Below are positions 213 through 17,064 of a stretch of DNA of 32,000 nt, in pieces. The stretch covers positions 1,350,001 to 1,382,000 of the forward strand of contig NC_005072.1 in assembly GCF_000011465.1 (NCBI RefSeq). The letters run 5' to 3'. The position numbers were made by a program, and so were the translations under genes. Under the pieces are notes generated by a model. That model was not told where the DNA came from. It made no database searches and worked only from the letters and a program-made list of their open reading frames with translations. Origin of the DNA: Prochlorococcus marinus subsp. pastoris str. CCMP1986 (GTDB lineage: Bacteria; Cyanobacteriota; Cyanobacteriia; PCC-6307; Cyanobiaceae). Positions within the stretch are counted from its first letter, which is position 1; each line of letters opens with the position of its first letter.

Positions 213-368
213 TTAGACGAATCCAGGAATAATTTGACCTGTTGTTAAATAAGCACCAATAGCAGCTATGAAGCCAATCATGGCAAATCTGCCGTTGAGC
301 TTTTCTGCAACAACTTTTTCCTTCTCAACTGTTTTTGTTTCGAGAACTTTAACTTTTTTTGAGTTCAT
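213..368 (-). CDS. hli: high-light-inducible protein (HLIP, one-helix CAB-like protein)
   Basis: Hand translation gives 51 aa: MNSKKVKVLETKTVEKEKVVAEKLNGRFAMIGFIAAIGAYLTTGQIIPGFV*. The AEKLNGRxAMIGF...G helix motif is diagnostic of cyanobacterial HLIPs. Track ORF 268..483 (+) is its antisense shadow. Confidence 0.85.
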   Translation of the reverse strand: MNSKKVKVLETKTVEKEKVVAEKLNGRFAMIGFIAAIGAYLTTGQIIPGFV

Positions 369-987: not shown

Positions 988-1143
988 AATCTTAATCTTT
1001 ACTTTTACTTAACTAATTGTTAACAATAGGTCGAAAATATTAATTTGTCAGCTAGTCACATTACCTATTTGGATGACTTAAGTATGATAAATACTCCTGG
1101 AACAATTACGAACAATTGGAGATAAGAGAAATAATCGTTTCAA

Positions 1144-1515
1144 TTAAAATTTAAGTTTTGTTTTTACTCTATTTTTATTTTCAGAATTAAATTTAAAAAG
1201 TCCCGAGTCAGTAAATATAGTCAATTCATCGCCATATGATTCCTGGATAGATAAACCTTCATCAGAATCTAAATTTTTAACAAATACATTTCCGACTAGT
1301 TTTAAAGTTCTCGCATCTTTGTCGTAAGTAAGCTTATTTGAGGAGGCTTCAAAATTATTCTTATTACTTTTGATAACTACATTTCCAATAGCTTCAAAAC
1401 TCCCTTTTACGTTTTGTATCTGAGAATCAGAGGTAACTGTATAATTCAGCTTCTCTTTTGCAAATGAAATTTCAGTTAAAAGTAATAGTAGCGGGGCAAA
1501 TAGTAAGCGTTTCAT
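1144..1515 (-). CDS. secreted protein with the shared MKRLL leader; weak OstA/LptA-like repeat pattern
   Basis: Starts with ATGAAACGCTTACT. Signal peptide is MKRLLFAPLLLLLTEISFA. The mature part has recurring GNVVI / GNVFV strands reminiscent of the OstA/LptA fold (weak, from memory). Confidence 0.8.
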   Translation of the reverse strand: MKRLLFAPLLLLLTEISFAKEKLNYTVTSDSQIQNVKGSFEAIGNVVIKSNKNNFEASSNKLTYDKDARTLKLVGNVFVKNLDSDEGLSIQESYGDELTIFTDSGLFKFNSENKNRVKTKLKF

Positions 1516-1803
1516 TTATGGATCAAGCTTCGTTGTTAGTTGGCAAAAAGTAGCATTATTATTTTTGAGACATTTATTGTATTTTGTCTGTAAAACTTTT
1601 TGTGCTTCTTTCTTTATGCAAAGATCCAAGTAATTTTTTGCAAATTGAGTCATCCCAATTTCGTTATATTCTGCATATTTCAAACCTGGTCTTTTGCATT
1701 GAGAGACTATTTGTTTGTAAGTAGGTTCTTTATGAAAAAGATTTGCTTTAACAGCAGTAGGTAAAGCGACAACAGCTAAAAGTGGGAGTAGTAAGCGTTT
1801 CAT
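1516..1803 (-). CDS. secreted Cys-containing small protein with the shared leader (95 aa)
   Basis: Starts with ATGAAACGCTTACT. Signal peptide is MKRLLLPLLAVVALPTAVKA. Its stop codon directly abuts the ATG of the next ORF. Confidence 0.8.
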   Translation of the reverse strand: MKRLLLPLLAVVALPTAVKANLFHKEPTYKQIVSQCKRPGLKYAEYNEIGMTQFAKNYLDLCIKKEAQKVLQTKYNKCLKNNNATFCQLTTKLDP

Positions 1804-2040: not shown

Positions 2041-2086
2041 AAAAAGAGGGTTTTACCCCTCTAATATAGATTAACTGTCAATCAAT
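2041..2086 (-). repeat. diverged copy of the ATTGACAGTCGATCTAAAAT boundary element, plus hairpin and T-tract
   Basis: The minus strand reads ATTGATTGACAGTTAATCTATATT, then hairpin AGAGGGGTAAAACCCTCT, then TTTTT. It sits between the stop of 2091..2411 and the ATG at 2031. Confidence 0.7.
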
Positions 2087-2411: not shown

Positions 2412-2480
2412 AACTAAAATTGGATAGTGTAATTTCAATCTAAAAACGATAATTTAAAAAGAATTTAATTTATCTTTAAA

Positions 2481-2500
2481 TTTAGATCGACTGTCAATCG
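2481..2500 (-). repeat. boundary element core copy
   Basis: The minus strand reads CGATTGACAGTCGATCTAAA and contains the exact 16-mer TTGACAGTCGATCTAA. Confidence 0.85.
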
Positions 2501-2510
2501 TATTTAATTT

Positions 2511-2534
2511 AGCTGCAAGTAGTAAGCGTTTCAT
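2511..2534 (-). pseudogene. orphan signal-peptide leader (ATGAAACGCTTACTACTTGCAGCT) with no gene body
   Basis: A perfect 14-mer ATGAAACGCTTACT abuts the TAA of ORF 2535..3047. The reading frame runs straight into the boundary element and dies (MKRLLLAAKLNTIDSRSKF...). Confidence 0.6.
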
Positions 2535-3047
2535 TTAAAAATCATAAGTGACTTTATCGCATTTTTTCTTTCGATATATTTTCTGCATTTCTTTTTGTTC
2601 TGATAAATAATCTTCTTTTGCTTGTTTATTAATTGGATCATATTTGGCTTTAAATTCTTCTTTGATAGCTTGAGCATTTTGTCTTCTTTCTTCTGCCATG
2701 AAATCAAAATCACCATCACTATAATTTCCACTTTTTAAGGTAGTTTCAAACAAATAACATTCATTAGATAAAGCAATATCAAATTCTTTTAGTAAGAAAT
2801 ATTCAGTACAAAAGCTTGCTAATTTATAAGGACTATTATAAAAGTCTCTCCAATTTATATCTATTCCATAAACTTCAGCAATTTTTTCATTAGTAAATTC
2901 TTTGCTTTGTTTTACAAATAATATTTTTTGCTGATAATCATCTTTTGATTGATTTATTGCAAATTGAAGGTCTTTGCATAGTCTTACTTTATCGTTTCCA
3001 AAACCAACTATAAGTGGGAAAACAATAAATAAAACTAAGCGTTTCAT
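2535..3047 (-). CDS. secreted hypothetical protein (170 aa) with a leader variant
   Basis: Starts with ATGAAACGCTTAGT, one mismatch from the shared 14-mer. Signal peptide is MKRLVLFIVFPLIVGFG. Track ORF 2531..2731 is an out-of-frame shadow. Confidence 0.8.
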   Translation of the reverse strand: MKRLVLFIVFPLIVGFGNDKVRLCKDLQFAINQSKDDYQQKILFVKQSKEFTNEKIAEVYGIDINWRDFYNSPYKLASFCTEYFLLKEFDIALSNECYLFETTLKSGNYSDGDFDFMAEERRQNAQAIKEEFKAKYDPINKQAKEDYLSEQKEMQKIYRKKKCDKVTYDF

Positions 3048-3731: not shown

Positions 3732-3764
3732 TTAATCAATAGATTTAAGTGGTGAGCTTTTCAT
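3732..3764 (-). pseudogene. degenerate orphan leader (ATGAAAAGCTCACCACTT...)
   Basis: Its ATG abuts the TAA of ORF 3765..3932, giving the same stop|ATGAAA architecture. It is only 10 codons long (MKSSPLKSID*). Confidence 0.35.
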
Positions 3765-3956: not shown

Positions 3957-3978
3957 ATTTTAGATTGACTGTCAATTT
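3957..3978 (-). repeat. boundary element core copy
   Basis: The minus strand reads AAATTGACAGTCAATCTAAAAT, one mismatch from the consensus core. Confidence 0.8.
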
Positions 3979-4288: not shown

Positions 4289-4328
4289 AAGGAGCTAATT
4301 ACCCCTTATTTTAGATCGACTGTCAATC
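4289..4328 (-). repeat. boundary element with hairpin
   Basis: The minus strand reads GATTGACAGTCGATCTAAAATAAGGGGTAATTAGCTCCTT. It starts 3 nt after the stop of micro-ORF 4331..4444. Confidence 0.85.
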
Positions 4329-4610: not shown

Positions 4611-4681
4611 AAATTTAGTACTGACAAATATTTTAAAAATTAATAATATAAGCCTAAATAATTTTCTAGGAATTCAAATTG

Positions 4682-5110
4682 ATGATTAAAAATTTATTCA
4701 TAGCAATAGCCTTTGCTTTAATGCTCATTAACCCAAGTATTTCTATAGCTGCAGAATCTCCTGTAGATGTACAAGAAATCTTTGTAGGTTCTGAAACTAT
4801 GGATGGTGATTCTCTTAAATATCCAAAAGGAAAAGCAGAAATAAGATTACAAAGAGTCGAGTTAGCTGAGGGAGGGGTAGTCCCACTCCACTCTCATCCA
4901 ATTCCATTATTAGGTAATGTTGAGCAAGGTACGATTGTTGTCAAAAGACAAGGAATGGAAGATCTTACCTATACAGCAGGGGATACTTTTATAGTTGGTC
5001 CAAAGACACCAAAACATACAATGGGTAATGCAAAAACTGATAACGCAGTAGTTTGGTTCGCAGCAATAGGTGCAAAAGATGTTCCAATACTAATTCCCGC
5101 AGAAGGATAA
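4682..5110 (+). CDS. secreted cupin-domain protein
   Basis: Signal peptide is MIKNLFIAIAFALMLINPSISIAA. GGVVPLHSHP...G....GD matches the cupin_2 metal-binding motifs. The track ORF starts one codon earlier, at TTG 4679. Confidence 0.85.
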   Translation: MIKNLFIAIAFALMLINPSISIAAESPVDVQEIFVGSETMDGDSLKYPKGKAEIRLQRVELAEGGVVPLHSHPIPLLGNVEQGTIVVKRQGMEDLTYTAGDTFIVGPKTPKHTMGNAKTDNAVVWFAAIGAKDVPILIPAEG

Positions 5111-5133: not shown

Positions 5134-5181
5134 TTGATTGATAGTCAAACTATAATGAGGAGCAATTAGCTCCTTTTTTTT
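5134..5181 (+). repeat. diverged boundary element with a perfect hairpin and T8 directly before an ATG
   Basis: Sequence is TTGATTGATAGTCAAACTATAATGA, then GGAGC-AATTA-GCTCC, then TTTTTTTT, then the ATG at 5182. Confidence 0.75.
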
Positions 5182-5490
5182 ATGACTGCTCAAAATTTTA
5201 TGAATGTTGTTCGATTTAAATTAAAGTCAGATTGTGTAGATAAGTATTTTGAAGTAATAGATAAAACAAGTTTTGAGGGGATGACTCAAAGATATATCGC
5301 TAAAACTGGAGTTTATGATTACTGTTTTGTTGGGATCTGGAAAAGTGTAGAAGCTATTGCAGCTCAAAGACCAGCTATGATTGCTCACCTTGATGAGGTT
5401 AGAGGATTTATGGAAGAGTTGTCTCCTGAACTTGGAGTTACTGATCCTGTTTCAGGAAATATTGTTTCTAAAGTTGGTTATCATGATTAA
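5182..5490 (+). CDS. hypothetical 102-aa protein, possibly ABM/Dabb-like ferredoxin fold
   Basis: Track ORF with an ATG start. The fold guess rests only on size and the pattern V.F.LK...........G...........W.S.EA. Confidence 0.75.
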   Translation: MTAQNFMNVVRFKLKSDCVDKYFEVIDKTSFEGMTQRYIAKTGVYDYCFVGIWKSVEAIAAQRPAMIAHLDEVRGFMEELSPELGVTDPVSGNIVSKVGYHD

Positions 5491-5506
5491 TAGTCGATTT
5501 TAAAAG
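5486..5506 (+). repeat. degenerate boundary element copy
   Basis: GATTAATAGTCGATTTTAAAAG compared with GATTGACAGTCGATCTAAAAT. It overlaps the stop codon of 5182..5490. Confidence 0.45.
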
Positions 5507-6006: not shown

Positions 6007-6975
6007 ATGAAACGCTTACTACTTCCACTACTAGCTGCTCTCGCTATAAATTCTCAACCTGTTCTTACGAATGAAGATAGAGCTAACTTTTCAGAGGCTG
6101 AAATAATTAAAGTAAATAATAAAAATATAGAAGTAATTAAATTTAAAGTGCCTGATAAGAAGTTTCCAGATAGAAATGATGTTTTAGCTCAAATTCATTT
6201 TCCAAAATATTACAAGAATAAAAAATTATCCCTAATTATTCACCAACATGGAAGTAATAGAGATGGTTTAAGGTTCGAGAAATGGGGAGGTAGAACAGAC
6301 GAATGGGGGAGAAGGTTAGTAGAAAAAGCTTTAGAAAGAGGTTATGCGGTAGCTTTGCTTGATTCTTTTTATAAAAGAAAGTTAAAACCTTCAGATAAAG
6401 GAAAGTTTCCAAACGGTATTTTGATTAGTGAAAAACTTAACTCGATACTATCTAAGGATGAAAGATTTGATAAATCAAAAATTTTTTACTCTGGTTTTAG
6501 TTATGGTGCAAGTCAAGTATTGAAGCTTCAAGACAAAAGGGCAAACAGCGATTTATTTAAAGCAGCAGTGGCAGCAGAACCTGGATGTAACAAAGTTTCT
6601 TTTCCATTCAAATCTAATATAAAAACTTTAATAATTAAAGGTGAGGACAGCCATTATAACCCCATCGCATGCGAATATTATTATAATCTTGTTAAAGAAA
6701 CGGGAAATCAAATTGAATATGTATCTATACCGAAAGTAAATCATTTCTTCAGCTTAAACGGATCAATTGGAAAAGGAATAGCAGTTAATGGATGCTCAGA
6801 AAATATAGTAATACAATATCCAGATCGGACATTCAAACTTGCAGATGGAACATCAATCAATAAAGAAGAAGCTCAAAGAAGGTGTTTAACAAAGGAGTCG
6901 GGTGAAGGTACGACAAGAGAGAAATTGGATGAAGCAATAAATATATCGCTTAATTATTTTGATAAGTACAAATAA
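6007..6975 (+). CDS. secreted alpha/beta hydrolase (dienelactone-hydrolase/esterase-like) with the shared leader
   Basis: The ATGAAACGCTTACT start at 6007 gives MKRLLLPLLAALA; the track ORF begins earlier, at TTG 5983. It has a nucleophile elbow GFSYG (GxSxG) and an HQHGS oxyanion-type motif. Confidence 0.85.
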   Translation: MKRLLLPLLAALAINSQPVLTNEDRANFSEAEIIKVNNKNIEVIKFKVPDKKFPDRNDVLAQIHFPKYYKNKKLSLIIHQHGSNRDGLRFEKWGGRTDEWGRRLVEKALERGYAVALLDSFYKRKLKPSDKGKFPNGILISEKLNSILSKDERFDKSKIFYSGFSYGASQVLKLQDKRANSDLFKAAVAAEPGCNKVSFPFKSNIKTLIIKGEDSHYNPIACEYYYNLVKETGNQIEYVSIPKVNHFFSLNGSIGKGIAVNGCSENIVIQYPDRTFKLADGTSINKEEAQRRCLTKESGEGTTREKLDEAINISLNYFDKYK

Positions 6976-7734: not shown

Positions 7735-9819
7735 ATGAAAAGAAAACTCTTTTCTGCGATATTAACAGGCACGATGCTAGTAGCTCCTGCCAGTACTCTT
7801 GCAGAAACAAAACGTATTGGTGAGACCAGAGCTCTAATTCCTGAAGCAGGTCTTGCTTTGAACCCAGTCTTAGATGGTGGTAACGGAAACGTTGACTTCC
7901 CATTTGGAAACTTTAAAGCACTCGCTACTGTTGGTGAAGTAGGAGACAACGGACTTGCACTGACTGGATATCCAGATGGACAGGCAGCATATCTGCTTGA
8001 TAACGATACTATTCGAGTTGTTTATCAGTCCGAATCTTATGCGACCATGGGTAAAGCACCAGTCCCTGAGACTTATAACTGGGAAATGAAAAATGGTGTA
8101 ACTTTCTCTGGTTCTCACATTCACACGATTGATTATGATCGTGCAAAATTTGCTAAATTCATGAAAAATGGTTCTTCTGCAGAAGGAATGGTCAAGGATT
8201 CTGGTAAATTATTCAACACAATCTACAACGTATTTGGTGATGAAGTAACGAAGGAGAATTTAGTCTGGGGTAACCAAGCACTTCCCAGTCAACGCGTTGT
8301 TCCTTTCCTAGATAAATACAAACTTTCTGAAGCCGACTTCTTCCTACAGTCCTTTTGTGGTGCATGGTATGAACAAGCAAATAAATATGGTAATGGTATA
8401 GGGCTTGAGGATGATGTATGGCTTACTGCTGAAGAGTGGGAAATCGGTCGTATGTTCACTGGCTCTAAGAAGACTGGTAGAACAGAATCTGATAAAACGA
8501 TGGGTCTTGCATCAATAGCTGTTGATGTTAAGAACGAAGTTGCCTACACTGCACCTGCTTTAGGTCAGACTGGTTATGAAAAACTAATGCCAATCAACCC
8601 TCAACACAAAGACTATGTTGTTATCGTTGGTGCTGGTTATAATCACAATCAAGAACCTGCTCCTCTTAAGGTTTATGTCGGCATGAAGGATCGTCTTCCT
8701 GATGGTTCTGAGATTGATTACTCTACTGCTAATGAGCGCGATGCCTTCCTTGGACGAAATGGCATGCTCTACGGTCGCATCTACGGATTTGCAATGCCTA
8801 CCAAATCTTATGCTTCACTAGGTCTTGAAGCGAACCCTGCCGCAAAGATGATGGATGAGTATCTTCAGAATGCTGATGCACCTAACTCCTTTGAGGGTCG
8901 TTTCTATCCTACTTCCTATCAGTGGGGTGGCTGGGATAATCCAGTCTCAGTAAACAATACTGAGATGATGTTGTGGGAGCAAGCAGGTGAACAACCTGAG
9001 GGTTACACCTTCTTCAACGGAGATTCAAAAGCAGAACATCCTGCAGTAGATCCTGATATCAACCGTACTCGTTATGTTCAGAACATGACTAACAAAGGTG
9101 GGATTCTTGGTTTCGATTTTGGTTTCATTGGAGCCACTCTAGACGCTGCTGATGGCGATCTACCTGAATTCCTTCCTGCTACTGGTATTCGTGTTGTTCC
9201 TGCCATTGATGGTGCTCTTACTCTCAAGACTGGTGGTGAAGGTGTTGTGAAGGATGGCTCTGCCGCAATTCACGTTGAGAAAAATAAGGCAGCAATGGTT
9301 TCTCCAGATGGCCTTTATTGGACTAAACACGCTGATGGTTCTTACCTTATCGTTGATGAGGATTCTGGAAACGACTTTGGAGAACGTAAGTATGTCCTAC
9401 CCATCAAAGAGTCAGATATGACTCTTAGTGAACCGAACACTGGCTACCTATTAGGTCTTGCTGGTGGTAAGCACTCCTCACGTTATGAAGCAGGTGCATC
9501 TGCTCTTGGTGGTGCATTTTCCAAAGCAACTACTTCTGAGTTCTCTGGTTCTTGGAACGTAACTGCTCTGACAACTAAGAAGTCAAATGGTTTATTCGGA
9601 AGCAAATTCTACTCTATGGATGAACTTGCAGGAACTGGTGAACAAGAGATCATTCAGGGTATTGACACTGATGATCAACTCTTTATCGGTGTTGTTCAAG
9701 CCCGTGGTGAGTCAGGTGGTGCAGTTGCTGAAGAAGGTGGTGATGCTGGTGGACAAGTCTTCCAATTCACTTTTAACTTGCCTGAAAAATCAGAGGGAGA
9801 GAATATTGCTCAGTTCTGA
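7735..9819 (+). CDS. secreted PhoX/DUF839-like beta-propeller protein (putative phosphatase), 694 aa
   Basis: Signal peptide is MKRKLFSAILTGTMLVAPASTLA. Three motifs resemble PhoX family landmarks (recalled, not searched): GYPDGQAAY, SFCGAW...DDVWLTAEEWE and SPDG....DGSYLIVDEDSG. The gene is clearly richer in G+C than its neighbours. Four overlapping track ORFs are shadows. Confidence 0.9.
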   Translation: MKRKLFSAILTGTMLVAPASTLAETKRIGETRALIPEAGLALNPVLDGGNGNVDFPFGNFKALATVGEVGDNGLALTGYPDGQAAYLLDNDTIRVVYQSESYATMGKAPVPETYNWEMKNGVTFSGSHIHTIDYDRAKFAKFMKNGSSAEGMVKDSGKLFNTIYNVFGDEVTKENLVWGNQALPSQRVVPFLDKYKLSEADFFLQSFCGAWYEQANKYGNGIGLEDDVWLTAEEWEIGRMFTGSKKTGRTESDKTMGLASIAVDVKNEVAYTAPALGQTGYEKLMPINPQHKDYVVIVGAGYNHNQEPAPLKVYVGMKDRLPDGSEIDYSTANERDAFLGRNGMLYGRIYGFAMPTKSYASLGLEANPAAKMMDEYLQNADAPNSFEGRFYPTSYQWGGWDNPVSVNNTEMMLWEQAGEQPEGYTFFNGDSKAEHPAVDPDINRTRYVQNMTNKGGILGFDFGFIGATLDAADGDLPEFLPATGIRVVPAIDGALTLKTGGEGVVKDGSAAIHVEKNKAAMVSPDGLYWTKHADGSYLIVDEDSGNDFGERKYVLPIKESDMTLSEPNTGYLLGLAGGKHSSRYEAGASALGGAFSKATTSEFSGSWNVTALTTKKSNGLFGSKFYSMDELAGTGEQEIIQGIDTDDQLFIGVVQARGESGGAVAEEGGDAGGQVFQFTFNLPEKSEGENIAQF

Positions 9820-10814: not shown

Positions 10815-11025
10815 AGATTCTGCACCCTAGAAATCTTATCCCCATAGCCAAAAAGCTCTTCGAATATATGGTTTTAGCTGCCAACCCCAGAATCCATATC
10901 CAAAGACAAGGAATTGAGGGAAAAAACGAATTAACAGTAAAATAATTCCTCCTCTACCTCTCGCTTTCGTTGAAATCCTTGCTGCATCACTTGAATCAAA
11001 GTTTTATACAGTAGATACAGATTTG

Positions 11026-11424
11026 ATGACAGATGAAACAAAAATAAGATTTTATATTGAGAGTGAAACCCAAGTCCAAGACTCAATAGGAGGAAGAGAT
11101 ACGATTAATCTTTGGGTTAGATGTAACAATAGTTATCCACAAATCTTTTTTACAACTCCTACCTATAACGCTGACAATACTAGAGTTGGTGTTAGATGGG
11201 ATAAAGATAAAGCATCTTTCTACAACTGGAATAAGTCAACAGATAGCCAAGCTTTTTTTCATCCAAGACCTAAAGAATTTGCTCAAAAACTGAAAGAAAA
11301 AAGTTTTTTAACAGTTCAGTGGAGCCCATACAGCAGTTCAAGTCGTACGGCAAAGTTTGATTTAAATTCTCAAGAATTTAGAGAAGATATTTCAAAAGCC
11401 ATAGCAGATGGGTGTAATTTTTAA
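11026..11424 (+). CDS. hypothetical protein (132 aa)
   Basis: Track ORF with the ATG at 11026. Its TAA directly abuts an orphan ATGAAACGCTTACT leader. Confidence 0.7.
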   Translation: MTDETKIRFYIESETQVQDSIGGRDTINLWVRCNNSYPQIFFTTPTYNADNTRVGVRWDKDKASFYNWNKSTDSQAFFHPRPKEFAQKLKEKSFLTVQWSPYSSSSRTAKFDLNSQEFREDISKAIADGCNF

Positions 11425-11466
11425 ATGAAACGCTTACTACTTGCACCGCTAATAGTTAGTAATTGA
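11425..11466 (+). pseudogene. orphan signal-peptide leader (13 codons) running into a boundary element
   Basis: ATGAAACGCTTACTACTTGCACCGCTAATAGTTAGTAATTGA encodes MKRLLLAPLIVSN*. The stop lies inside the ATTGACAG core. Confidence 0.6.
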
Positions 11467-11503
11467 CAGTCGATCTAAAATAAGGGGCAATTAGCTTCTT
11501 TTT
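11461..11503 (+). repeat. boundary element with hairpin and T-tract directly before an ATG
   Basis: Sequence is AATTGACAGTCGATCTAAAATAA, then GGGGC-AATTA-GCTTC, then TTTTT, then the ATG at 11504. Confidence 0.85.
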
Positions 11504-11908
11504 ATGGAAAAATTTTCCCAGAATCTTCTTAGGCTTTCTCTTTCAATATTATTTTTAAGTTTTCCTATTGGTTTTTTATTCGCAGGGATTGAATATATAA
11601 ACACCAAAAAGTTTTTAACAACAAAATATGATGAATTAAATGAAAAGACAGAAGACTATATAGAGGATATGGAAGAAACTTATCCTGAAACTATAAAATA
11701 TTTTCCTTCAACTAAATTGGCAGATAAATCTCCTCTTGCAACATTACTTTTAACAAAATCAACTATGAAATTATTTCAAGTTTCCGAATATCTAAAATAT
11801 AAAAATTCAATTTTGGATACTACTGACGAGATATCAAAGACTGTTGATGCTTTTATAGAAGAATTAAGAATTGAATATCCCGAATTAAATAGAATACTTC
11901 CTAGATGA
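11504..11908 (+). CDS. hypothetical membrane-anchored protein (134 aa)
   Basis: Track ORF with an N-terminal hydrophobic segment. Its TGA overlaps the next ATG (ATGA). Confidence 0.7.
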   Translation: MEKFSQNLLRLSLSILFLSFPIGFLFAGIEYINTKKFLTTKYDELNEKTEDYIEDMEETYPETIKYFPSTKLADKSPLATLLLTKSTMKLFQVSEYLKYKNSILDTTDEISKTVDAFIEELRIEYPELNRILPR

Positions 11909-12117
11909 AACGCTTACTCTTAGCTGAGCTTTTGTTAGTTTTAATTACTCTAATTTTTGTTTCTCTAAAACCAATTTCTAGAATTTATATTGCTGATTAT
12001 TTGGAAAAGATATCCTTATTTTTATTTAGAACAGTAAGCGATGAAGATTTAAATAAGTGGTATGAGAAAAGAGATAAGTATGAATTACTTGAGGAATCAG
12101 GAGGAACTGCTTACTAA
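11905..12117 (+). CDS. small protein with the shared leader used as a TM anchor (70 aa)
   Basis: Starts with ATGAAACGCTTACT (MKRLLLAELLLVLITLIFV). Its stop TAA lies inside the next boundary element. Confidence 0.7.
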   Translation: MKRLLLAELLLVLITLIFVSLKPISRIYIADYLEKISLFLFRTVSDEDLNKWYEKRDKYELLEESGGTAY

Positions 12118-12136
12118 TTGACAGTCGATCTAAAAT
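12116..12136 (+). repeat. boundary element core copy
   Basis: AATTGACAGTCGATCTAAAAT is identical to 11461..11481. Confidence 0.85.
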
Positions 12137-14583: not shown

Positions 14584-14604
14584 GATTGACAGTGGATCTA
14601 AAAT
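14584..14604 (+). repeat. boundary element core copy
   Basis: GATTGACAGTGGATCTAAAAT has one mismatch from the consensus. Confidence 0.8.
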
Positions 14605-16746: not shown

Positions 16747-17064
16747 ATGGACAGAACACAACAAATTAAGGATGCTCATCCTTGGCTTTCCTACGAAGAA
16801 GTAGTGAAGGTAATTCTCTATCATCATCATCAGGGTTCAATGTGGATTCATAACCTTCAGAGAGACAAGCTTGAGAGGTCGATGGAAGCGTTCACAAAGC
16901 TTCTTAAATCAAAGAGCATGAAAGCCCTTAAACCCTTTGTAGAGTACGTTCTAGGCGTCTACTACAGGGGTGTAGATAAGTATGGTAATCAGACAGAAGT
17001 AAACAAAGAGTCCTTCGAGAATAGATGGCATAAAGCAAGAACAATTTTACTAACAAGCAAATAA
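16747..17064 (+). CDS. hypothetical 105-aa protein (intact member of the family with decayed copies at 7066 and 4551)
   Basis: Track ORF. It is richer in G+C than the surrounding island. No family recognised. Confidence 0.75.
   Translation: MDRTQQIKDAHPWLSYEEVVKVILYHHHQGSMWIHNLQRDKLERSMEAFTKLLKSKSMKALKPFVEYVLGVYYRGVDKYGNQTEVNKESFENRWHKARTILLTSK

Follow-up and report, generated by a model that had tools for sequence, protein, structure and literature searches.

A leader stub joined to a box-hairpin element in a Prochlorococcus genomic island: a probable empty slot in a module-shuffling system

The 32,000-nt stretch at positions 1,350,001 to 1,382,000 of contig NC_005072.1 of Prochlorococcus marinus subsp. 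pastoris str. CCMP1986 (hereafter the window, whose own numbering is used throughout) carries at 11421-11506 a short joint of two repeats, lying between genes for 132-aa and 134-aa proteins. We consider this 86-nt feature to be an empty slot (null allele) in a repeat-mediated module-shuffling system like that of the promoter-early stem-loops (PeSLs), and put the probability of this reading at roughly 0.6. The left repeat would be the first 26 nt of a signal-peptide leader module, surviving here as a non-coding stub, and the right repeat a 20-nt box followed by an intrinsic-terminator hairpin and a T-run into the next ATG, the box-hairpin being a compact module for termination and perhaps for promotion as well. 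Together, the two repeats would delimit small gene modules that are freely reshuffled in the islands of high-light Prochlorococcus. Exchange would presumably follow the transfer of DNA from cell to cell, with the repeats serving as substrates for homologous recombination or gene conversion. The stub-box joint would have arisen a few times through loss of the gene body; since then it would have been passed on by descent and carried about, as a null allele, by this recombination. Since both junction sequences are kept in the joint, the slot could be reloaded. The feature and its neighbours are as follows (labels of the type L060 denote loci and contigs from elsewhere):

11026..11424, plus strand: upstream gene, 132 aa as annotated, with its TAA stop ending at 11424
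11425..11450, plus strand: orphan leader stub ATGAAACGCTTACTACTTGCACCGCT, 26 nt, adjoining the TAA of the 132-aa gene
11425..11466, plus strand: 13-codon open reading frame (ORF) MKRLLLAPLIVSN, whose TGA stop lies within the box
11451..11461, plus strand: linker AATAGTTAGTA, joint type 2, with the same linker in L060, L050, L124 and L111
11462..11481, plus strand: box ATTGACAGTCGATCTAAAAT, whose final six bases TAAAAT (11476-11481) fit a -10-like TAnnnT
11482-11500 (with T-run to 11503), plus strand: hairpin AAGGGGC/AATTA/GCTTCTT, then TTT and the next ATG
11504..11908, plus strand: downstream gene, 134 aa, found with four different upstream arrangements in other genomes

The initial annotation had described this site as a leader followed by box, hairpin, T-run and the ATG of the next gene, a description borne out by the letters. 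The ORF reads ATG AAA CGC TTA CTA CTT GCA CCG CTA ATA GTT AGT AAT TGA, and its peptide is not conserved among stub copies; the hairpin stem has 7 pairs, 2 of them G-T.

Evidence for exchange at the repeats comes from the sequences that flank them in related loci. Across the box, 0.50 of the pairs sharing one flank also share the other, compared with 0.69-1.00 at controls (clean control offsets, 150-250 nt), and across the leader the sharing of flanks falls to 0.36 and 0.17, compared with 0.86-0.95 at controls. A homologue of the window gene at 5182 is found behind the box after four different upstream genes, and one upstream 3' end, ..GGTTATCATGATTGACAG, whose stop is taken from the box, is followed by any of four different sequences. 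In identity profiles, the change of partner falls at box positions 0 and about 19. Pairs that have just the upstream gene in common are at background identity just past position 19; in those that have just the downstream gene in common, identity rises from position 20, and the hairpin is thus moved, for the most part, along with the downstream gene. The type of hairpin shows no strict association with either neighbour. The profiles place the exchange point inside the box, and box and leader are shown by these comparisons to behave as population-wide points at which neighbouring sequence changes partner. The suggestion that the box is a real boundary is thus upheld, homology between related loci switching within it, and the same holds for the leader start, across which flank linkage falls. 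In two loci (L050 and L094) the upstream flank of the window box at 14585 is joined to the downstream flank of that at 2481; this is the junction that an inversion between the two oppositely oriented boxes should yield, and it implies, relative to the window, such an inversion (about 12 kb) or a rearrangement of some other kind.

An exact scan of species-representative genomes for the box gave at least 120 stretches of 8 kb, and among the matches listed 117 of 120 came from Prochlorococcus or Synechococcaceae assemblies. No description of box or leader was found in the searchable literature by strings and keywords, subscription papers being outside reach. When 228 unique box contexts were aligned, conservation started sharply at -2, with nothing kept upstream, and ended after the T-run. 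The conserved order is 20-nt box, purine-rich arm, A/T loop, pyrimidine arm and T-run (consensus tG-ATTGACAGTCGATCTAAAAT-AAGGGGCAATTAGCTCCTTTTTT), and the core of the box is a near-palindrome, GATTGAC-A-GTCGATC. A hairpin of at least 5 bp with a T-run follows 134 of 217 boxes, compared with 14% of random windows, and in 96 of these 134 an ATG lies 3-8 nt past the stem. The hairpins comprise 64 different stem pairs which are all complementary, so that pairing, not sequence, is maintained. Structure and covariation support a terminator role for the hairpin, and putative terminators were called by the scan at 5157-5175 and 2062-2045, behind two boxes. Some upstream ORFs also take their stop codon from a box. 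The neighbour on the upstream side is divergent at 19% of the boxes and the downstream neighbour convergent at 18%, indicating that the element serves gene ends as well as gene starts. At L142:815-880, two boxes facing in opposite directions have one common hairpin between convergent genes, the arrangement of a bidirectional terminator.

These properties bear on the possibility that box and hairpin form a non-autonomous mobile element, similar to repetitive extragenic palindromes (REPs) or miniature inverted-repeat transposable elements (MITEs), which copies itself to new intergenic sites and whose long form carries the stub. Hundreds of near-identical copies with sharp 5' and 3' limits, the stop codons given to upstream ORFs, and the copies on contigs of T4-like cyanophages (see below) would fit such an element. 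We nevertheless give it little credence, since the copies have neither target-site duplications nor terminal inverted repeats, nothing is conserved outside the interval from -2 to the T-run, the ORFs scanned include no transposase of the REP-associated type, and the register with the downstream ATG is fixed, which agrees more readily with co-inheritance with genes than with insertion.

For an unbiased view of the 3' half of the box, copies were collected using the first 12 nt alone as anchor. In 194 of the 220 copies so obtained, TAnnnT occupies box positions 14-19, the commonest hexamers being TAAAAT (103), TAAACT (35), TAACAT (20) and TACAAT (13). This is the pattern of conservation of a -10 hexamer, and a promoter role is suggested for the box. 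TTGACA lies just 7 nt upstream of the hexamer; a sigma-70 promoter using it as -35 was rejected, the spacing being wrong.

The leader proper is a 60-nt signal-peptide module encoding MKRLLLPLLAALALPTAVNA which heads unrelated secreted proteins. Real leaders are conserved from -3 to +59, and conservation of the stubs stops at about +25. The 118 unique leader-like sites divide into 44 that open an ORF of 40 codons or more and 74 orphans; of the orphans, 22 have a box at 36-38 nt and 52 are other short stubs, with at least 6 recurrent non-box partners (e.g. stub+TAAAAAAAA+hairpin and stub+T-run+ATG). About half of the real leaders, and about half of the stubs, adjoin the stop codon of the preceding gene, and 18 of the 55 complete leader genes have another leader or a stub at their own stop. 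The two orphans of the window end after 13 and 26 codons, and a complete Sec-type signal peptide with AxA cleavage site is absent from both. A family of 49-aa proteins, MKRLLLTPIFKRFKKS... (L027, L029, L044, L069, L109 and L134), opens with no more than the initial 18-21 nt of the leader and lacks a signal peptide, which suggests that the first six leader codons are by themselves a transferable start module.

A second copy of the joint was noted in the window on the opposite strand:

2511..2534, minus strand: second orphan leader stub ATGAAACGCTTACTACTTGCAGCT, adjoining the TAA of a 170-aa gene (2535-3047)
2479..2498, minus strand: second box ATTGACAGTCGATCTAAATT, 36 nt from the stub ATG and upstream of a DUF3303 gene (2091-2438)
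3732..3764, minus strand: third example, in fact a leader-like start ATGAAAAGCTCACCACTT whose homologue in L042 opens a 44-codon ORF

In copy 2 the leader 21-mer corresponds to 2534-2514 and the box 18-mer to 2498-2481, and each of the two window leaders meets the box ATTGACAGTCGATCTAAA after about 37 nt. The two leaders are identical over 21 nt, as had been stated, and over 29 nt when ATTTTTAA before the ATG is counted. The leader 21-mer recurs 5 times in the window when 3 mismatches are allowed (0.00 expected from shuffles). The box 18-mer has 7 matches (0.07 expected), and chance is excluded for both. The proposal that copy 2 repeats the whole arrangement applies to leader and box but not to hairpin, T-run and ATG, as the box is followed by just a weak A/T stem and the next gene starts 43-70 nt beyond. 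The third, degenerate example cannot be retained as a leader-box scar: it contains no box, and the supposed remnant ATTGATTAAATTAAAAT aligns to ordinary sequence of L042, relative to which a 6-nt insertion creates a TAA.

If the joint is an empty slot, occupied alleles should be found in related genomes, and at the first site they were. Directly after the stop of homologues of the 132-aa gene (site 1), the following arrangements were observed: i) stub and box, with three linkers, in the window, L054 and L143/144, ii) in L142, a leader gene of 72 aa with box and hairpin behind it, iii) a 140-aa leader gene in L145, iv) a frameshifted leader gene in L139/L146, and v) a decayed stub adjoining a tRNA gene in L140/141. 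Occupied alleles of site 1 thus exist (L142 and L145), the full-length gene for which the initial annotation had advised a search. Viewed from the other side, homologues of the 134-aa gene have four upstream arrangements, in none of which a leader gene fills the slot; an allele with a gene between the 132-aa gene and the box of the 134-aa gene was sought through these protein homologues and not found. At site 2, upstream of the DUF3303 gene, 4 of 7 genomes have stub and box, behind three different upstream genes, and 3 of 7 have the box without a stub.

The joints are uniform. In all 22 unique cases (22/22) the ATG-to-box spacing is 36-38 nt, and the linkers fall into two or three homologous types, each main type occurring behind several different upstream sequences. 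Fixed spacing and linkers shared behind different upstream sequences indicate that the joints descend from a few ancestral ones which have since spread. This does not agree with the view of the joints as scars of repeated independent excisions. Nor are leader and box the two ends of a standard cassette: leader, body and box are directly joined in the 70-aa family alone among the complete leader genes, and stubs join something other than a box more often than a box. The empty-cassette idea is partly supported: the boundaries and the occupied alleles at site 1 are upheld, and independent excision and the standard cassette are not.

The uniform joints also bear on two other explanations. In the first, a site-specific, integron-like recombinase would cut in leader and box, excise the bodies and leave a standard scar. 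The exchange point within 20 nt, the near-palindromic core, the common geometry of all scars and the presence of occupied and empty alleles at the slot after the 132-aa gene are what such an enzyme would produce. We consider it unlikely, however, since Pfam comparison of 20 of the window ORFs detected no integrase, transposase or recombinase family, the linkers are homologous within types and so indicate shared ancestry, stubs have the other recurrent partners mentioned above, direct joining of leader, body and box is confined to one family, and the hairpin does not keep strictly to one neighbour or the other. In the second, the joints would be ordinary pseudogene debris, unrelated random deletions having removed the bodies of leader genes, and the likeness of the window copies would be incidental. 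Decay is indeed widespread (the leader of the 132-aa gene is degraded, the occupant in L139 is frameshifted and the third example is truncated), and the partners of the stubs are many and different. Random deletions, however, predict variable end points, whereas the 22 joints share one spacing and few linker types and stub conservation ends sharply near +25; debris is therefore very improbable.

Stub, linker and box might instead be a regulatory unit of the next gene: a small ORF or an attenuator in front of the terminator, or else a two-part site that binds a protein or serves as promoter. Two conserved motifs separated by a variable spacer of fixed length, a short ORF ending in or just before the box and upstream of a terminator hairpin, and the conserved TAnnnT at the 3' end of the box speak for it. 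Against it, the ATG is replaced in 26 of the 74 stubs (about 35%) and the peptides vary in length and sequence, most boxes have no stub and most stubs no box, and the downstream genes are mutually unrelated. A structured RNA extending from stub to hairpin was rejected, as it folds no better than shuffled sequences do (z = 0.10) and neither it nor the window has a relevant Rfam match. The features of a leader-peptide attenuator were likewise not found: the start codon is often lost, and the centroid structure consists of two independent small hairpins and no more. A regulatory unit thus appears quite unlikely as an account of the joint.

We therefore return to the empty slot in a repeat-mediated shuffling system, against which several observations have to be set. 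1) Occupied alleles at site 2, which the cassette idea also called for, number 0 in 7 genomes. 2) The stub consensus ..TTGCACCGCT differs from that of most real leaders (..CTCCCACTACT), and a consensus of its own together with a fixed distance to the box could mean that the joint is a functional bipartite element rather than debris. 3) No properly spaced -35 is present, and the promoter scan called no -35/-10 pair at any box. 4) The terminator and promoter roles are predictions from sequence. 5) The loci analysed were chosen for holding a perfect box and are a biased sample. 6) Twenty bp is the lower limit for RecA-type recombination, and since the switch is confined to the 20-bp box, a site-specific enzyme would also fit. 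As to the second point, the stub consensus is nearest to the leader of the family of the 123-aa LptC-like gene. As to the last, homologous recombination or gene conversion is probable because no enzyme is evident, hairpin type is not firmly bound to a neighbour and the joints look inherited, and nothing observed requires a site-specific mechanism.

Further boxes and leaders of the window are listed below:

2065..2082, minus strand: box with 3 mismatches, then hairpin AGAGGGGTAAAACCCTCT (2062-2045)
3959..3976, minus strand: box with 1 mismatch, perfect palindrome variant GTCAATC, upstream of a 55-aa gene
4310..4327, minus strand: box, then hairpin AAGGGGTAATTAGCTCCTT
5137..5175, plus strand: degenerate box ATTGATAGTCAAACTATAAT and hairpin GAGGAGCAATTAGCTCCTT, then T-run and ATG at 5182
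5486..5505, plus strand: decayed box ATTAATAGTCGATTTTAAAA without hairpin, at the stop of a 102-aa gene
14585..14602, plus strand: box with 1 mismatch and without hairpin, in a divergent intergenic region
11905..12117, plus strand: 70-aa gene with leader (MKRLLLAELLL...)
12117..12136, plus strand: box adjoining the stop of the 70-aa gene
1516..1803, minus strand: 95-aa gene with full leader, its stop adjoining the next leader
1144..1515, minus strand: 123-aa LptC/LptA-like gene, whose leader ..TTTGCCCCGCTA.. is the real leader nearest to the orphan stub
1078..1143, minus strand: further leader-like stub TTGAAACGATTATTTCTC..., adjoining the stop of the 123-aa gene
6007..6975, plus strand: 322-aa gene with full leader and a degenerate stub after its stop

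The window is a genomic island of high-light Prochlorococcus together with adjoining core genes. Its GC content is about 30%; small ORFs on either strand are numerous up to about position 17,000, and core genes (EVE, Hsp70-like, phosphoglycerate mutase, GroEL and ATP synthase) begin at 17.6 kb. Seven boxes and two degenerate ones all lie in the first 15 kb, and the core-gene half has none. At the island edge is a gene for a high-light-inducible protein (HLIP; 213-368, minus strand), and in L171-L180 an HLIP gene immediately precedes a decayed box and a 134-aa gene homologue. A 694-aa ORF (7735-9819) with a signal-peptide-like start and no Pfam match has 41-42% GC in this 30% GC region and looks like foreign DNA. 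No DNA match of the window to isolate phages was obtained, and a phage origin of it was rejected.

Homologues of the 132-aa gene elsewhere are 161 aa long and start with a MKRLLLPLLAALALPTALES leader, of which a decayed remnant is seen at 10945-11022; the 132-aa gene could be a pseudogene, or its translation could begin from an ATG further in. In L140, L145, L150 and L153 these homologues often adjoin a tRNA gene or a tRNA 3' fragment. Such genes and fragments are the usual integration points of Prochlorococcus islands; ARAGORN found no tRNA gene in the window. Logan contigs break at 11465-11494, where the short-read contigs L002, L004-L008 and L011-L014 end or begin within box and hairpin with a 30-nt overlap, and L003 and L015 span the site and match the window. 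The breaks were rejected as alleles within the culture and are read as an assembly-graph branch due to the repeat.

Neither box nor hairpin was found in isolate phages (0 of 50,697 records), and the same absence led us to reject the box as a promoter of the phage RNA-polymerase type (20-nt motif followed by GGGG/GAGGG). Most of the 18 stretches from IMG/VR were dismissed as chance matches in high-GC phages, and genuine box-hairpin copies are confined to three IMG/VR contigs, L137, L138 and L164. T4-like phage genes are carried by L138 and L164. L138 (1-1120) has two island-type genes, one of them a cupin gene closely similar to the window ORF at 4679-5110; three boxes delimit these genes, and the third stands immediately ahead of uvsX and a gp41-type helicase gene. 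L164 (1-640) has the order phoH, box, 41-aa island gene, and also an RNase H-like gene. L137 has box and hairpin at the contig end and ORFs with no phage family match. The boundary between phage and host-like sequence falls exactly at the box in L138 and L164, which fits capture by recombination and would also fit chimeric assembly.

A bolder proposal, which we regard as rather doubtful, is that high-light Prochlorococcus possess a dedicated population-wide module-exchange system, in which box with terminator and stub are crossover sites or landing pads of small island genes, common to the bacteria and to T4-like cyanophages which carry boxed genes from cell to cell; it might use excised circles or a site-specific factor. 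If this were true, stub-plus-box sites would be reloadable empty slots, and there would be a concrete molecular mechanism for the small cassette differences between coexisting Prochlorococcus subpopulations. Most Prochlorococcus cells lack the usual gene-transfer machinery (tycheposon preprint). With two searchable motifs at the exchange points, the question of how Prochlorococcus islands gain and lose small gene sets would become testable. The motifs allow junctions to be catalogued across thousands of single-cell genomes, primers to be designed for circles and for empty and occupied alleles, and boxed genes to be sought in phage particles and vesicles. The box-hairpin-ATG layout may further illustrate how, in a streamlined genome, about 45 nt can accommodate both terminator and start signals.

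Four known systems resemble parts of this arrangement. REPs and bacterial interspersed mosaic elements (BIMEs) are likewise abundant short hairpin repeats just after genes and possible terminators or RNA stabilisers. Here, however, a non-palindromic conserved 20-nt box precedes a variable hairpin, the register with the next ATG is fixed, and no associated transposase was seen in the ORFs scanned. Prochlorosin ProcA precursors in Prochlorococcus are a gene family with conserved leader and variable body, and families of this type share with our genes a conserved 5' coding module that is common, at the nucleotide level, to otherwise diverse genes. The module here is instead a Sec-type signal peptide of 20 aa, the bodies do not vary a single peptide but belong to unrelated proteins, and most copies of the first 26 nt of the leader are orphaned.

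Integrons with their attC sites also have arrays of small genes, a partly palindromic conserved element at each 3' boundary with the exchange point inside it, 'empty' units without an ORF, and occupied and empty forms of one site. They differ in that no integrase was found here (20 window ORFs scanned), the box-hairpin consensus has neither an RYYYAAC inverse core nor the GTTRRRY core and attC architecture, and our genes lie on both strands, with an element that has its own terminator and joints that appear to be shared by descent. As the defining features of integrons were tested and are lacking, the element is not an integron.

The closest analogue of the box element is the PeSLs of T4-like phages, composite promoter/terminator motifs before small ORFs, through which sequences are inserted, deleted and replaced (Arbiol et al. 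2010, PMC2839356; Comeau et al. 2014, PMC4122927). The differences are that the box element sits in a cellular genome, that here the box comes before the stem-loop whereas in PeSLs the stem-loop precedes the promoter, that the box element has no properly spaced -35 and no Shine-Dalgarno sequence, and that a second class of junction, the leader, lies within coding sequence. In both cases, a short conserved composite motif with a stem-loop terminator stands directly before small ORFs in hyperplastic regions, the end points of indels and replacements between close relatives fall at the motif, and degraded 'half' motifs are common.

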